Virus genome (UHGV): UHGV-0247313
Source of the DNA: a virus
DNA: 10,162 nucleotides
Direction: 5' to 3' (one strand)
Positions 1,797 to 10,162 of the stretch are shown here, piece after piece; the stretch's first letter is position 1, and each line of letters starts with the position of its first letter. The position numbers and the translations under genes are program-made. The notes below the pieces were generated by a model, which was not told the DNA's origin, made no database searches, and saw only the letters and a list, made by a program, of their open reading frames with translations.

Positions 1797-3563
1797 ATGA
1801 ACACCACACTGACACCCGCAGATCTCGATCCCCGTCGGCAGGCCATGCTGCTGTACTTTCAGGGATACCGCGTAGCCCGCATTGCTGAAATGCTGGGCGA
1901 GAAAGTTGCAACCGTTCACAGCTGGAAAAAACGCGACAAGTGGGGTGACTATGGGCCGCTGGATCAGATGCAGCTCACCACCGCCGCACGCTACTGCCAG
2001 CTCATTATGAAGGAGCACAAAGAAGGGAAAGATTTCAAAGAGATTGACCTGCTGGCGCGCCAGTCGGAGCGCCATGCGCGGATCGGCAAGTTTAACAATG
2101 GCGGCAACGAAGCCGACTTAAACCCTAACGTCGCCAACCGCAACAAAGGCCCGCGTCGTCAGCCGGAAAAGAACGTTTTCACCGATGAACAGATTGAGAA
2201 GCTGGAAGAAATCTTCCATTCCTCCATGTTCAACTACCAGCGCCACTGGTGGGAAGCCGGAAAAACCAACCGCATCCGCAACCTGCTGAAGTCACGCCAG
2301 ATCGGCGCGACCTTCTATTTTGCCCGTGAAGCCCTGATTGACGCCCTGCTAACCGGGCGTAACCAGATTTTCCTTTCCGCCAGCAAGGCACAGGCCCACG
2401 TCTTTAAGCAGTACATCATCGACTTCGCCAAAGAAGTGGAGGTGGAGCTGAAAGGCGATCCGATAGTGCTTCCTAACGGGGCCACGCTGTACTTCCTCGG
2501 CACCAATGCCCGCACGGCCCAGAGTTACCACGGCAACCTGTATCTGGATGAATATTTCTGGATACCGAAATTCCAAGAGCTGCGCAAAGTGGCTTCCGGT
2601 ATGGCTATTCACAAAAAATGGCGACAAACCTATTTTTCCACGCCATCCAGCCTGACACACAGTGCTTATCCGTTCTGGTCCGGTGCGCTGTTCAACCGTG
2701 GGCGCAACAAAGCCGACAAGGTGGACATCGACCTGTCCCACAGCAATCTGGCCCCCGGCCTGCTGTGCACAGACGGGCAATACCGCCAGATAGTCACCGT
2801 GGAAGATGCGGTGCGCGGCGGCTGTAACCTGTTCGACCTCGACCAGCTACGCATGGAGTACAGCCCGGACGAATACCAGAACCTGCTGATGTGCGAGTTC
2901 GTGGACGATCTCGCGTCCGTGTTCCCGCTCAGCGAGCTGCAAGCGTGCATGGTGGACAGTTGGGAAATCTGGACCGACTTTCATGCACTGGCCCTGCGCC
3001 CGTTTGGCTGGCGCGAAGTGTGGATCGGTTATGACCCGGCAAAAGGTACGCAGAACGGCGACAGTGCCGGATGCGTGGTGGTGGCACCGCCAGCCGTGCC
3101 GGGTGGTAAGTTCCGCATTCTTGAGCGTCACCAGTGGCGCGGGATGGACTTCCGCGCCCAGGCTGACGCCATCAAAAAACTGACCGAGCAGTACAACGTG
3201 ACCTACATCGGCATCGACTCGACAGGTGTCGGCCACGGGGTTTACGAGAACGTGAAAGCGTTTTTTCCAGCCGTCCGGGAGTTTGTCTACAACCCCAACG
3301 TTAAAAACGCCCTGGTACTCAAGGCCTACGACATTATCAGTCACCGTCGTCTGGAGTTTGACGCCGGACACACCGACATAGCGCAGTCATTTATGGCAAT
3401 CCGTCGCGCCACCACCGCCAGCGGCAACCGCCCAACCTATGAAGCCAGCCGCAGCGAAGAAGCCAGCCATGCCGATCTGGCCTGGGCAACAATGCACGCA
3501 CTGTTTAACGAACCGCTGCAGGGCGAGTCCGCCAATACCAGCAATATTGTGGAGATTTTTTGA
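1797..3563 (+). CDS. P: Terminase large (ATPase) subunit gpP-like
   Basis: 588 aa, the size and family of P2 gpP. Divergent from O. Its stop overlaps the portal start (TGATG). Confidence 0.9.
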   Translation: MNTTLTPADLDPRRQAMLLYFQGYRVARIAEMLGEKVATVHSWKKRDKWGDYGPLDQMQLTTAARYCQLIMKEHKEGKDFKEIDLLARQSERHARIGKFNNGGNEADLNPNVANRNKGPRRQPEKNVFTDEQIEKLEEIFHSSMFNYQRHWWEAGKTNRIRNLLKSRQIGATFYFAREALIDALLTGRNQIFLSASKAQAHVFKQYIIDFAKEVEVELKGDPIVLPNGATLYFLGTNARTAQSYHGNLYLDEYFWIPKFQELRKVASGMAIHKKWRQTYFSTPSSLTHSAYPFWSGALFNRGRNKADKVDIDLSHSNLAPGLLCTDGQYRQIVTVEDAVRGGCNLFDLDQLRMEYSPDEYQNLLMCEFVDDLASVFPLSELQACMVDSWEIWTDFHALALRPFGWREVWIGYDPAKGTQNGDSAGCVVVAPPAVPGGKFRILERHQWRGMDFRAQADAIKKLTEQYNVTYIGIDSTGVGHGVYENVKAFFPAVREFVYNPNVKNALVLKAYDIISHRRLEFDAGHTDIAQSFMAIRRATTASGNRPTYEASRSEEASHADLAWATMHALFNEPLQGESANTSNIVEIF

Positions 3564-3979
3564 TGGGAAAGAGTAAGAAAAACCGCGCTGCGGCGACGAA
3601 CCAGATCCAGCATAAAAACCAAACTTCAGCCGAAGCATTCAGCTTCGGTGATCCCGTTCCTGTTCTGGACCGCCGCGAATTACTGGACTATGTGGAATGC
3701 GTAAAGATGGACCGCTGGTATGAGCCACCCGTAAGTTTTGACGGACTGGCGCGAACATTCCGCGCCGCCGTACACCACAGTTCACCGATTGCAGTAAAGT
3801 GCAACATTCTGACCAGCACCTACATCCCTCACCCGCTGCTCAGCCAGCAGGCGTTTTCACGTTTTGTGCAGGACTATCTGGTTTTTGGTAACGCCTACCT
3901 GGAGAAACGCACGAACCGATTCGGTGAAGTTATCGCCCTTGAGCCTGCGCTGGCAAAATACACCCGACGCGGATTAGAC

Positions 3980-4030
3980 GAACAGCGTGGCGGACTCGTT
4001 GAGCAGGGCGGATGGGATGGCAGAAAGATA
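3980..4030. repeat. Inverted-repeat arm, exact reverse complement of 4161..4211 (51 bp)
   Basis: Base-by-base comparison. A further 9-bp pair is 3971..3979 ggattagac and 4151..4159 gtctaatcc. Confidence 0.95.
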
Positions 4031-4160
4031 GCCGGGCAGGCCGTAGATCTCCTGGTTGATGTCCGGTTCCATCAGATGAAAAATGCTGCCTTTCGTGAAC
4101 TGATACGGCTGCGTGGTCATGCCGTATTGCACAAACCAGTAGGTATCTAGGTCTAATCCC

Positions 4161-4211
4161 TATCTTTCTGCCATCCCATCCGCCCTGCTCAACGAGTCCG
4201 CCACGCTGTTC
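4161..4211. repeat. Inverted-repeat arm in native orientation, partner of 3980..4030
   Basis: Encodes in-frame native portal sequence YLSAIPSALLNESATLF. Confidence 0.95.
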
Positions 4212-4657
4212 CGCCGAAAGTATTACATTAACGGTAGTCATGCAGGCTTCATCATGTACATGACCGATGCCGCGCAGAACCAGGAAGATGTGAACAACCT
4301 CCGCAATGCGATGAAAAGTGCCAAAGGCCCTGGCAACTTCCGCAACCTGTTTATGTACTCGCCTAATGGTAAAAAAGACGGACTTCAGATTATCCCGTTG
4401 TCAGAAGTCACAGCGAAGGATGAGTTTCTGAATATCAAGAACGTGAGCCGTGATGACATGATGGCGGCACACCGCGTGCCGCCGCAAATGATGGGAATTA
4501 TGCCTAATAATGTCGGGGGGTTTGGGGATGTGGAGAAGGCTAGCAAGGTATTCGTAAGAAACGAATTGATGCCCCTGCAGAAACGATTGCAGGAACTAAA
4601 TAACTGGTTGGACGAAGAAGTGCTCAATTTTTCAACCTATGAGCTTTAGTTTTAAAA

Positions 4658-4685
4658 CGAAGACCATTAGGTCTTCGCTTTATTT
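4658..4685. terminator. Bidirectional intrinsic terminator between convergent Q and the retron RT gene
   Basis: 8-bp stem cgaagacc/ggtcttcg with loop atta. T-rich tracts on both sides (ctttattt on plus; ttttaaa on minus). The RT stop codon sits in the loop. Confidence 0.6.
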
Positions 4686-5629
4686 AAAGGGTTCTTTCCA
4701 TATTTTTTTTCTAATTTGCTAATATAAGTTATTAATCTCCTATGGCTTTTTGAATCCACACTTAAAATAAATGACAACCATCCCCTAACGTGTTCTATCT
4801 CAGAAGACTTACCGCAAAATATATGATGTATCTTTGCTCTAATTTCTTTATATTTTTCTCTACCTATCCCAACTTTCTCTTGTGAAATAACTAAACCTGT
4901 AACTTTCCTCTGACTACGAGGCCCACTAATACAAGTTTTTTTTGAGTTAATAACCAATCCTTCACTTGGGATTATAGAAAATAAAAAATCACGTGCTTTA
5001 ACAACCTTTTTCATAGACTGTGCAGATAAGGTGAGATCATCGGCATATCTCGTATATATCAAGCCCCGACTACCTGCATAACCCTGAATACGATAATCAA
5101 GTTTAGAACATATTAGATTAGCTAATTTAGGTGATGATGGAGCACCTTGTGGTAGCAGATTTTTATAACAACATATTTTTGTCAAAACTGAAGATATTAG
5201 TCGATTATAACCAAGAGAATGGAACACTCCAAAAACTTTGTTAGCAGTTAAACTTGGGAAAAAATCCTCCAAATCAATATTCAGTATAAAGTTTGCCCCA
5301 ATATGCGGGGTAGCATTATTCAAAATAGATTGGTGCTTTTCAAATCCAATAGAAAAAGGAGATGACGACAGTTTATCTAAAATGTTACGTAGAACCCATC
5401 CTTGTAAGGCTTTAAGTTCTCGAGAAGGTTGGTAAATGGTTCTCATTCTCTTCTCTGGGCCTTTCTTTTCTACAGTGTAGATCCTATAGCGAAAATCAGC
5501 TGTATAGATTAACAACCGAAGTGTTTCAACAGATATGCGAGTCGCCTTAGACATGTCATGCAAATTGTTCATGACAGGTAGGCCGAGATTTCTCAATCTA
5601 AAAGTGTTCAAATATTCAGCGGATTTCAT
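4667..5629 (-). CDS. ret: Retron reverse transcriptase, Retron-Eco1 (Ec86)-type
   Basis: 320 aa with RT motifs: NIDLEDFFPS (motif A), LPQGAPSSPKLANL (motif B), YADD (motif C). Directly downstream of the msr-msd element. AT-rich unlike the flanking phage genes. Confidence 0.95.
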   Translation of the reverse strand: MKSAEYLNTFRLRNLGLPVMNNLHDMSKATRISVETLRLLIYTADFRYRIYTVEKKGPEKRMRTIYQPSRELKALQGWVLRNILDKLSSSPFSIGFEKHQSILNNATPHIGANFILNIDLEDFFPSLTANKVFGVFHSLGYNRLISSVLTKICCYKNLLPQGAPSSPKLANLICSKLDYRIQGYAGSRGLIYTRYADDLTLSAQSMKKVVKARDFLFSIIPSEGLVINSKKTCISGPRSQRKVTGLVISQEKVGIGREKYKEIRAKIHHIFCGKSSEIEHVRGWLSFILSVDSKSHRRLITYISKLEKKYGKNPLNKAKT

Positions 5630-5635
5630 GAAAGT

Positions 5636-5804
5636 TGCGCACCCTTACGTCAGAAAAAACGGGTTTCCTGGTTGGCTCGGAGAGCATCAGGCGATGCTCT
5701 CCGTTCCAACAAGGAAAACAGACAGTAACTCAGATTCAATGCAGGATGCCGAAACAACATCCAGAGGTTGACCTTAATGATAAACCTCTCGCTAAGGGTG
5801 CGCA
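5636..5804 (-). ncRNA. msr-msd: Retron msr-msd non-coding RNA (msDNA template), Ec86-type
   Basis: Flanked by 12-bp inverted repeats: tgcgcaccctta at 5636..5647 and taagggtgcgca at 5793..5804. Internal 10-bp perfect msd stem ggagagcatc/gatgctctcc at 5679..5702. Lies immediately upstream of the RT start. Matches the Ec86 msr-msd as I recall it. Confidence 0.85.
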
Positions 5805-6715
5805 TACGGAATCTTATCATAGTTAAATGTTGATTTTCTACGGTTTTCAAAATTCATAATCTCAAGCCGCAATCGGTCAAGTGTCTTTCTATCAAAGACG
5901 CTCCTAACATAGCTAGCCCCCAAAGCAGTGACCTGATAACCATCAGTCATTTGAAGTATTTTTCGTTCATTTATTAGACGAGAAACAACGGATCTAACAA
6001 TAATTTTAGATAAAACATCATCTTGCTTTATCGCTTTAAAAGCTAGTTCACACAGTGTGCGGTAGTTGACACTATCCAGTAAATAGATACAAGGCAATAG
6101 AAACCGCTCTGCGTATAATATATTTCCAATATCTTTTGATACTTTATTTTCTTTCCTAACCTTCTTAATAGATGCCATTAATTTTTTATATAATCGTAAT
6201 TTTCTGGCAACATCAATAGATGAATCACACATTTCTTTTAGTTCATTTGAACTACAACGCAAAACAGATTTTGAATTAAACTTACGCAACAGGCGAACAG
6301 GACCATAGTTAATAAAGCTACGTTTTGATTTAAATTTTGCATCTTGAATGCAAATCAACTTTCTCCTTAAGTTTTCATTATTAGAGAACGCACCAAGCTC
6401 TGTGAAAGACCCCGGACTTTCAGGAAATAAAATTATTACATCGACAGCTTCAGCCAGAATATTTTCTAAACTTAAAAGGCTATGCTGCCCTTGACCAGCC
6501 AAAAGATCATCAAATAGATCTTCTGGATAAAATATATCAACATCACTGAACTTTGCTAAAAATTGTGATAATTGATGACGCCAAGATTGATGATTAGCAA
6601 CGTCACCACCACATAGAAAAATGGTTATTTTAATATTAGCTCCTCGATAGAAGCCTTTCTTTGTGAGATGTCCTATAAGCTGTTGTTGCTGCTCATCGGT
6701 AAATTTTTTATTCAT
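5792..6715 (-). CDS. Retron effector: nucleoside deoxyribosyltransferase-like (NDT-like) N-terminal domain with a C-terminal putative DNA-binding domain
   Basis: 307 aa. N-terminal Rossmann-like motifs (ITIFLCGGD; VIILFPESPGSFTELGA). Upstream of and overlapping the msr a1 repeat. Same AT-rich composition as the RT gene. Confidence 0.8.
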   Translation of the reverse strand: MNKKFTDEQQQQLIGHLTKKGFYRGANIKITIFLCGGDVANHQSWRHQLSQFLAKFSDVDIFYPEDLFDDLLAGQGQHSLLSLENILAEAVDVIILFPESPGSFTELGAFSNNENLRRKLICIQDAKFKSKRSFINYGPVRLLRKFNSKSVLRCSSNELKEMCDSSIDVARKLRLYKKLMASIKKVRKENKVSKDIGNILYAERFLLPCIYLLDSVNYRTLCELAFKAIKQDDVLSKIIVRSVVSRLINERKILQMTDGYQVTALGASYVRSVFDRKTLDRLRLEIMNFENRRKSTFNYDKIPYAHP

Positions 6716-7187
6716 AATCTCCCCGCTTTTTTTTCTACTTTATACATCAAGTTATGAATAGATCCAATCTCCATACCACATGGCGCGCGCTCGTATCCCC
6801 GCCACGCCTGCCCGCTTTATGCAGTGGTTTTCATGCACATGCATAACATGAGCAAAAGCCCGCCAGTTCTGGCGGATCTGAGCAAAGACGATCCTCAATC
6901 GATCATGCGATTTCATGCAGCATAGTCATGCACTGTCAAGGAAGTGAAAATCCGTATCTGAATGGCCACTTGAAAAACGGATCATACGGGTTTACAAAGA
7001 TGAATGTTCGCTGTGAACGGGAAGCGGAAGTTAACTTTCAGATAACATAATCCATATGCACGAGAACCTCTAAAATAGAATGGGACACCTAAGCGGGGTA
7101 CTTACAACGATTCTTTCCATATTCACAGTTAACACTCTGTTTGGCGTATTTTTATTCAAATAGCAAACACCAATAAAAGGAGTTTCC

Positions 7188-8300: not shown

Positions 8301-9746
8301 TTAATACAGGTTCCGCCACTTATCATCTTCCTTCAGACGCTGGTTCCGATAGAAGATACGCAGGCCTGCTCCTGACGGAATACTGCCGCCGCGAAGGAGC
8401 AAATCGACTTCTTTCTCGCTGCCATCAAATCCCCTGGACTTCAGTTCATAGACGAGCTGCTGTCGCTGATGGTCTGTAATTCGCTGTTTGTAGTCTTTAC
8501 GCCGTTTCGGTTTCACCTGGCGTAACCTTGCAGCCAGTTCCCGGCGCTCTTTTTTGCTCATACTGTGCAGGTAATTGTGCAACTCCTTGTCATTCATACG
8601 GGTAATATCCGTTCTGGAGTCCCCATCAGCTGATTTGTCTTTCCCTTGTTGGTTCAAATTTTCAGCAAGGGGACAGTTATTGCCACGAGTCCAAGGGGCG
8701 CAAGCGCCCTGGTCGGCTGCCGCCTCCTGAACGTCAACGGCCTTACGAACCATTTTCCACTTCACCGCATGAGTGCAGATCTTGCCCTCTGCAATGGGTG
8801 ACCAGATGCCATAAATACGAATACCGTGATCGCCATATGCGGTCGGTTCTTCGTTGATTTCATAAGCAGTTCTGATGAGGTGATATTTGCGGGGAACCAG
8901 TACGCCGCCCTGCTTCATGATGTAGGTGGCAAAACAACCAGCATCAGCAGCAGCCAGGATTGCATCAAGACGCGGGTTATCCAGTACCGGCGCACCTGCT
9001 TTTTTGTCACCCTGTTGCCTTGCCGCCTGACCAGCCAGCAATCGCAGTTCACGGTAAGCCTGACGCCCCGGAATGCCAAAGAAGCGGAATTGCTGAACAC
9101 GATGCAGAGACGCCCAGGCATTAACGTATTCAGCGTTATCACGCAGGGATTTACCCGTTTCCTTGCTGATCTCCCCAGCCAGACCACGCCCGTCAATGTT
9201 CTTACTGATGTATTTCGCGATATAGCTTGTTGGCGTACCTTTGCGCGGGTTTATCAGCTCAGACTTAAAGCGTGGTCCCGTGTTATTGCCCAGCTCCTCG
9301 CGGTCTTCACGGATGGCAAACTTACGCAGTAATGCAGTGATGGCGCGGCGGTCTTTTTTACGCATGAAACACATGAGATGCCAGTGCACAGTACCGTCAT
9401 GATGCGGCTCAGCTACCGCACCTGCAGCAACACGCCCGATCTCTGCGGTTGCACTCATGACGTAATGTGGCAGTTTCTCTTTTGCCACCTCATTAATCGG
9501 TACGCATGGCAGGCAGTGAATCTGAGCCAGAAAACCATCTACCAGCGTTGAATCTTCAGTCAGATCGGTAAGCAGCCAGATTTCTGGTGCGGTTAATAAA
9601 TGAGGTTGCGCTGGGTTCAACTTGTTCCGCAGAATCTGCACATTCATGCCAGCACGTTCTGCCAGTTGCACCAGGTTGTGGCGCAATGCGAATGCACGAC
9701 AGGCTTCATCAAAATGTGGATGTTTGGAAACTTGGTAATCAAACAT
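8301..9746 (-). CDS. A: In-frame fusion: CII-like regulator N-terminus (about 110 aa) joined to a P2 gpA-like rolling-circle replication nickase C-terminal region
   Basis: N-terminus [25 protein letters not shown]...[29 protein letters not shown] matches the phage CII (186 CII/CP76-like) family. It then switches to [15 protein letters not shown] (HUH motif) and [12 protein letters not shown] (paired catalytic tyrosines). The HUH motif sits near residue 120 here; in P2 gpA as I recall it sits far further in. Start taken at ATG 9746, as in the plus-strand copy at 10087. Confidence 0.75.
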
Positions 9747-9805
9747 GGTCAATGCCTCTGATGTATTTCAGAATCGAACTAATTAAGGTTTAGATTGCAT
9801 TCTGA
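9671..9805. repeat. Left arm of a 135-bp perfect inverted repeat (partner 10028..10162)
   Basis: Exact reverse-complement match over the full length, limited by the window end. Holds the cII-like start, the intergenic region and the last 9 codons of the 73-aa ORF. Confidence 0.95.
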
Positions 9806-9832
9806 TCATCATTAAACGAGGAATGTTGCATC

Positions 9833-10054
9833 ATGAGACCTAACATTTCAATCACTCTTACCACCCCTCATGTGACTATTGAACGCTATAGCGAGCTGAC
9901 AGGGCTATCCATCGATACCATCAATGACATGTTGGCTGATGGACGCCTTATCCGTCACCGACTGCGCAAAGATAAAAAACGCGAAAAAGTGATGATCAAC
10001 ATAGCAGCAATGACCGTTGATGCGCTTTCAGAATGCAATCTAAACCTTAATTAG
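9833..10054 (+). CDS. Small helix-turn-helix DNA-binding regulator (Apl/Cox-like?)
   Basis: 73 aa with an HTH-like segment ([23 protein letters not shown]) and a basic tail. Sits directly upstream of the plus-strand cII-like start, as apl/cox precedes cII/B in 186/P2-type early operons. Confidence 0.45.
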
Positions 10055-10162
10055 TTCGATTCTGAAATACATCAGAGGCATTGACCATGTTTGATTACCA
10101 AGTTTCCAAACATCCACATTTTGATGAAGCCTGTCGTGCATTCGCATTGCGCCACAACCTGG
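10028..10162. repeat. Right arm of the 135-bp inverted repeat (partner 9671..9805)
   Basis: Reverse complement of 9671..9805. It may extend past the window end. Confidence 0.95.
10087..10162 (+). CDS. CII-like regulator, 5' end only (second, plus-strand copy; runs off the right edge)
   Basis: ATG at 10087 with AGAGG upstream. [25 protein letters not shown] is identical to the N-terminus of the minus-strand fusion gene. Confidence 0.65.

Follow-up and report, generated by a model that had tools for sequence, protein, structure and literature searches.

The 135-nt perfect inverted repeat at the right-hand end of the analysed DNA (the window, 10,162 nt in length) is probably a fold-back chimera that formed outside the organism's genome and has no regulatory role. 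We assign this reading a probability of about 0.6, and we infer the artefactual origin and the underlying process from the anatomy of the structure and its uniqueness among sequenced genomes. The two arms (Table 1) are 100% complementary over 135 nt and are separated by a spacer of 222 nt, as found with a repeat search and by direct reading of the letters. The exact reverse-complement arms and the spacer described in an earlier note on this DNA were thus confirmed. A perfect inverted repeat of 135 nt in 10 kb cannot have arisen by chance. As single-stranded DNA, positions 9671–10162 have a folding energy of −196.8 kcal/mol, compared with −56.7 ± 4.3 kcal/mol for shuffled sequences (z = −32.8), and form one long stem.

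The arms carry the beginning of a truncated cII gene and the end of a small cox-like gene. The last eight codons and the stop codon of the latter (10028–10054, right arm) are mirrored at 9779–9805 in the left arm, where the earlier note had indeed seen the end of a 73-aa ORF in reverse. Start codons of cII are located at 9746 on the minus strand (left arm) and at 10087 on the plus strand (right arm), i.e., two cII 5′ ends face outwards, as had been proposed. It also holds that the right arm is cut by the window end, since the second copy halts exactly where the window halts. Because the right arm stops only for this reason, its length of 135 nt is a lower bound and is biologically meaningless.

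To name positions in the native arrangement, we use the coordinates of the annotated BL21(DE3) prophage region from NC_012971.2 (L001). With blastn and exact string reconstruction, the complete window could be written as four consecutive pieces of L001, namely native 2763–6741, the reverse complement of 6733–6912, native 6861–12506 and the reverse complement of 12372–12728. There were no substitutions relative to these pieces in all 10,162 nt. Hence, the window is laboratory-strain E. coli B DNA that differs from the reference by three strand-switch junctions only. The strand jumps at these junctions span 171, 128 and 222 nt, respectively, so that opposite-strand joins over short distances are found in DNA that is otherwise identical to its template. 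The best matches among complete genomes in a BLAST search were 100% identical and came from the B lineage, BL21(DE3), REL606, C41, C43 and NEB Express strains among them.

The prophage in L001 is defective and P2/186-like. In the native BL21 order, gpA′, cII′ and the 73-aa gene lie on the minus strand and are followed by cI, a small ORF and a tyrosine integrase on the plus strand; this is an ordinary P2/186-type early region without an inverted repeat. Across the position of the last junction, the BL21(DE3) path runs from GCATTCTGA directly into AAGCGCATCAACGG, whereas the window runs from GCATTCTGA into TCATCATTAAACGA. The comparison with BL21(DE3) therefore bears out the view that the junction at 9805/9806 is non-native. 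At this point, the path jumps 222 nt ahead to the other strand and then runs in reverse over the cox-like gene and the cII 5′ end. The left arm extends without a break into 5.6 kb of sequence collinear with the reference and the right arm repeats this left flank, in agreement with the inverted duplication that the earlier note had described. We also considered a simple inversion in place and rejected it: in that case L001 12729 onward, towards cI, would adjoin the spacer, whereas a copy of the left flank was found instead.

Table 1. Coordinates of the rearranged sites in the window and of the genes that they affect. Reference positions refer to the BL21(DE3) prophage region L001; rc, reverse complement.
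Feature	Position	Strand	Description
Portal event, complete	3971..4211	.	forward to L001 6741, rc of L001 6733–6912, forward from L001 6861
cII′-′gpA fusion ORF, 483 aa	8301..9752	-	5′ end forms left arm; 100% identical to BL21
Left arm	9671..9805	-	native context, identical to BL21(DE3) L001 12372–12506
Left-arm content	9671..9805	-	first 25 codons of truncated cII, cox–cII intergenic region of 32 nt, cox-like 3′ end
Fold-back junction	9805..9806	.	L001 12506 directly followed by rc of L001 12728
Spacer	9806..10027	+	rc of L001 12507–12728
Spacer content	9806..10027	+	cox-like leader of 27 nt (9806–9832) and first 65 codons
73-aa Cox/Apl-like excisionase-repressor gene	9833..10054	+	intact ORF; PHROG 575, E = 6e-31
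Right arm	10028..10162	+	inverted second copy of L001 12372–12506; arm cut by window end
Right-arm content		+	cox-like end 10028–10054, intergenic region 10055–10086, cII codons 1–25 with ATG at 10087

Taken as a whole, the window encodes, in this order, LysC, LysB, a lysozyme remnant, the gpO scaffold protein, the large terminase and the portal protein, followed by a reverse transcriptase (RT) of 320 aa, an effector of 307 aa, a DUF8087 protein, a DinI-like protein, the cII′-′gpA fusion and the 73-aa ORF. The lysozyme (glycoside hydrolase) remnant at 762–932 on the minus strand overlaps the gpO scaffold gene at 902–1654 on the same strand. As the remnant adjoins gpO, the genes for capsid, small terminase and holin that would be expected in between from P2 are absent, and this deletion is a further sign of a defective prophage. 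The retron locus occupies 4667–6715 on the minus strand, with the RT at 4667–5629 and the effector at 5792–6715. RefSeq annotates the native retron as 'retron St85 family'; we take it to be Ec86/Eco1 of E. coli B. The BL21 RefSeq annotation places the RT start later (888 nt) compared with the ORF of 963 nt. In the gap between both genes, we found an imperfect hairpin of 25 nt (5664–5688 / 5693–5717), which is probably the msd stem. An Rfam scan of the whole window gave no family at the gathering threshold, and the retron non-coding RNA was thus not recognised by this library.

The 73-aa ORF belongs to PHROG 575, described as 'Cox-like excisionase and repressor', and gave no Pfam match above threshold. 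Its BL21 counterpart, WP_001247707.1, is encoded on the same strand as cII. The same layout is annotated in the peduovirus Klebsiella phage ST512-KPC3phi13.2, where cox-like gene, cII and the genes up to gpA all lie on one strand. Both by family and by its native position as first early gene, facing cI, the 73-aa ORF corresponds to a P2/186-type Cox/Apl regulator. In the window, this gene is inverted with respect to the rest of the prophage and severed from its native promoter. In the neighbouring fusion ORF, the N-terminal ~115 residues match the Pfam family Phage_CP76 (cII), and the portion from the replication protein gpA sets in with the C-terminal end of the Phage_GPA profile (residues 113–189). 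The E. coli B prophage carries this cII′-′gpA fusion natively, as the scar of a deletion by which the rest of the early operon was removed; in B strains, cII and gpA are annotated as two pseudogenes.

A sister event is found in the portal gene, where the earlier note had seen the same pattern. This observation was correct: the portal arms were confirmed, and the switch and the return are both contained in the window. The reversed piece comprises 180 nt (3980–4159). Two inverted repeats result, one of 9 nt (3971–3979 / 4151–4159) and one of 52 nt (3980–4031 / 4160–4211), the latter with its arms 128 nt apart. The repeats enclose an inverted core of 119 nt, and 119 nt are replaced by 180 nt, i.e., a net gain of 61 nt. 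The portal ORF is broken by this inverted duplication.

The portal event can be described with the four-point scheme for template switches, in which a forward stretch is followed by a reverse-complement fragment and again by a forward stretch. All three parts were found, with points 1, 2, 3 and 4 at L001 6741, 6912, 6733 and 6861, respectively, which is the type '3-1-4-2'. For the event at 9805/9806, points 1–3 of this scheme lie in the window, and point 4 lies beyond its end. We rejected a one-step insertion or overwrite of a reverse-complemented block in silico, as it would not reproduce the portal event.

Downstream of the portal event lies a C-terminal portal fragment of 131 aa (4254–4649), which is a called gene in 40 collection blocks. 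In the ten Logan contigs inspected over the equivalent of ~4046–4254, the contig always starts at most ~210 nt upstream of the fragment's ATG and has the native arrangement. The 131-aa fragment is probably a selection effect, produced by short contigs that break in the portal gene, which is common to P2-like prophages, and does not represent a genuine shorter gene.

We searched for the junctions in other sequences. Of 5,426 complete E. coli genomes, 530 contained the native 100-mer across L001 12506/12507 as one uninterrupted stretch. A native 30-mer, used as a positive control for the exact junction scans, was found in 96 IMG/VR contigs. The fold-back junction was spanned in none of the 5,426 complete E. 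coli genomes and in no PLSDB plasmid (BLAST), and its 30-mer had no exact match in viral, metagenome and species-representative genome collections. BLAST of window positions 9300–10162 against phage records likewise gave no record spanning the junction. For the portal junctions, no complete E. coli genome was found with BLAST, and no 30-mer match in the viral, metagenome and species-genome collections. The E. coli genomes searched include more than 100 records with a best match of at least 99% identity, B-lineage strains among them. A comparison of 108 related loci showed exactly one copy of the arm sequence in each of 99 carriers. Moreover, ten out of ten independent Logan assemblies of the region were collinear with BL21. 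The possible chimeric products, i.e., two portal ORFs and a 103-aa antisense ORF over 4159/4160, gave no match in the gene-position index. The junctions are thus missing from independent sequences of the same genome, as expected for a chimera.

We then analysed the breakpoints. Both portal junctions have no microhomology (0 nt), and at the fold-back junction a single nucleotide, the A at 9805, may be shared, so that values of 0, 0 and 1 nt are close to random joining. Within ±10 nt of the junctions, there was no useful complementarity at the landing sites. Nor was a motif shared by the six breakpoints found that would point to a nuclease, transposase or recombinase site. The nearest candidate for complementarity, CTGA/TCAG at the last junction, had to be discarded because it predicts three extra bases that are absent from the sequence. 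The three junctions hence do not show priming at short complementary sequences. They look like blunt or random joins and not like annealing-primed switches, and this counts equally against multiple displacement amplification (MDA) and against template switching in vivo.

We nevertheless rejected blunt ligation of random fragments in view of the pieces that were joined: these overlap in the reference and stem from the same neighbourhood of 180–360 nt. The topology is that of a polymerase template change; ligation of random fragments and site-specific recombination have different signatures. We therefore propose a polymerase-type strand switch, in which the polymerase would jump to the nearby opposite strand, copy back and return. 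At 9805/9806, copying would have proceeded from gpA′ through cII′ and the last eight codons of the cox-like gene before the 222-nt jump. In the portal gene, the switch would have been followed by 180 nt of copying back and by the return. Such events may have taken place during in vitro copying or amplification of low-abundance BL21 DNA, in the assembly or in another manipulation of the sequence, be it deliberate or accidental.

Chimeras of strand-displacement synthesis are among the closest known parallels. As described for MDA with phi29 polymerase (Lasken & Stockwell 2007, PMC1855051) and for strand-displacement amplification with the T7 replisome (PMC9484634), they join nearby opposite strands and give overlapping inverted repeats. 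In MDA, 85% of the chimeras joined sequences in inverted orientation, mostly from sites separated by less than 10 kb, with about one junction per 10–22 kb (PMC1855051). The window is similar in that the template is E. coli DNA and that it contains three junctions in 10.2 kb with jumps of 128–222 nt. It differs at the breakpoints, since strand-displacement chimeras nearly always start at 2–21 nt of complementarity or at short inverted repeats that were already present, and 93.5% of the MDA inverted chimeras with less than 10 kb between the joined sites start at 2 bp of complementarity or more (PMC1855051); the corresponding values in the window are 0, 0 and 1 nt.

The alternative origin is a private structural mutation in a derivative of E. 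coli B, produced by switch-and-return template switching or by one accident with multiple switches. We consider it a possible but less likely origin, with an artefact as the most likely one. The portal event fits the '3-1-4-2' form described for four-point template switches (Ripley 1982; Loytynoja & Goldman 2017, PMC5453318) exactly, and what is seen at 9805/9806 agrees with the first half of this form. Moreover, the affected genes are already dead in B strains, with cII and gpA being pseudogenes and late genes deleted, and in a defective prophage both mutations would be neutral. An error-free consensus is also what is expected of a true clonal variant. A spacer of 222 nt renders an inverted repeat of this kind tolerable in E. 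coli.

However, a mutation of this kind has to account for junctions that are missing from all complete E. coli genomes searched, including the B-lineage strains. Natural template-switch events usually employ existing near-repeats or microhomology. Those described in PMC5453318 are short, typically tens of nucleotides, and type '3-1-4-2' is rare, making up 1% of events. In the window, by contrast, there are two events within 6 kb, with copied stretches of 180 nt and at least 357 nt, blunt or nearly blunt junctions and no accompanying point change. Two such large events in 6 kb without a point mutation would be hard to obtain in vivo.

Recombinant enzymes are commonly contaminated with BL21 DNA, which makes low-coverage chimeric BL21 contigs plausible. 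We favour an artefact because three junctions occur in 10.2 kb of DNA otherwise identical to BL21(DE3), because both events are private and because BL21 is a frequent reagent contaminant that would be assembled at low depth. If the sequence came from the assembly of a clonal isolate at good coverage, this would speak against our preference, as chimeric reads are normally outvoted there and a surviving junction would be real. That the junctions are real, with retron Ec86 flanked by two large blunt template switches or by the traces of one multi-switch accident, nevertheless seems less likely to us. If true, they would provide an unusually large, microhomology-free bacterial example of the '3-1-4-2' type, and the duplication could be flipped by RecA and attacked by SbcCD.

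Short regulatory segments between inverted repeats are typical of inversion switches, e.g., those of the serine invertases Hin, Gin and Cin, of FimB/FimE and of other invertons. The earlier note had allowed for an invertible regulatory switch because the arms carry the early promoter-proximal region. In such a switch, a recombinase would flip the 222-nt segment containing the cox-like gene and thereby control early or lysogenic expression. The window resembles these systems in that an inverted repeat encloses the gene of a small lysis–lysogeny regulator, and RecA would be expected to flip the spacer between perfect arms of at least 135 nt if the structure exists in vivo. Three further hallmarks, i.e., a recombinase, an orientation-dependent promoter and conservation with two orientations, were not found.

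A consensus scan gave no promoter-like site in 9500–10162. The sole candidate for the native early promoter, TTGACG-17-TATGTT, has the same strand as the cox-like gene and is located at L001 12802–12774, outside the copied piece, which ends at L001 12728, 27 nt upstream of the ATG. In the window, both copies of the cII 5′ end and both ends of the cox-like gene are disconnected from the native promoter. The adjacent recombinase that the earlier note had suggested looking for is not encoded in the window; ORFs, annotation and profile searches all showed no recombinase gene, and the nearest one in the native arrangement is that of the prophage integrase, on the far side of cI. The repeat is missing from the 530 E. 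coli genomes and the 96 viral contigs that carry the locus, and no second orientation was seen in relatives. Furthermore, inversion switches use short recombinase sites, whereas the arms of the window are long, consist of ordinary duplicated coding sequence that does not differ from the reference, and owe their length to the window end. Flipping the spacer would mend one junction and break the other, so that neither orientation equals a functional native state. With no promoter or alternative coding end, no recombinase, no conservation and no native orientation, we regard an invertible switch as highly improbable. If the structure existed in a cell, flipping between the arms by RecA would be without regulatory consequence. 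A misassembly or a longer duplication, which the earlier note had named as findings that would speak against its reading, is more likely than a switch.

The arms might also be regarded as the terminal inverted repeats of a mobile element, a small one of the IS or MITE kind with the 73-aa gene as its cargo. The resemblance is one of formal shape only, i.e., an inverted repeat around a small ORF. Arms and spacer are native single-copy prophage sequence, there is neither a transposase nor a target-site duplication, and no further copies of the unit were found in genomes. Of all readings, we consider a mobile element the most improbable.

The repeat is therefore no new biological feature; in shape it corresponds to a fold-back chimera or a template-switch product. 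Its length, the 'outward-facing' genes and their 'promoter-proximal' position all follow from one fold-back together with the window end. What underlies the structure is the native lysis–lysogeny switch of the P2/186 type with a Cox-like gene, cII (Phage_CP76), cI and integrase. The native switch has no inverted duplication, whereas the window turns the cox-like gene round and never reaches cI and the integrase gene. If the junctions were real, they would modestly extend the list of structural mutations that template switching has produced in bacteria. Even then, they would be irrelevant to phage regulation, as the prophage is dead and the segment promoterless. More generally, caution is advisable, since a strand-switched prophage fragment of the commonest laboratory expression strain can mimic a new phage regulatory architecture, here a repeat around a Cox-like regulator beside cII.
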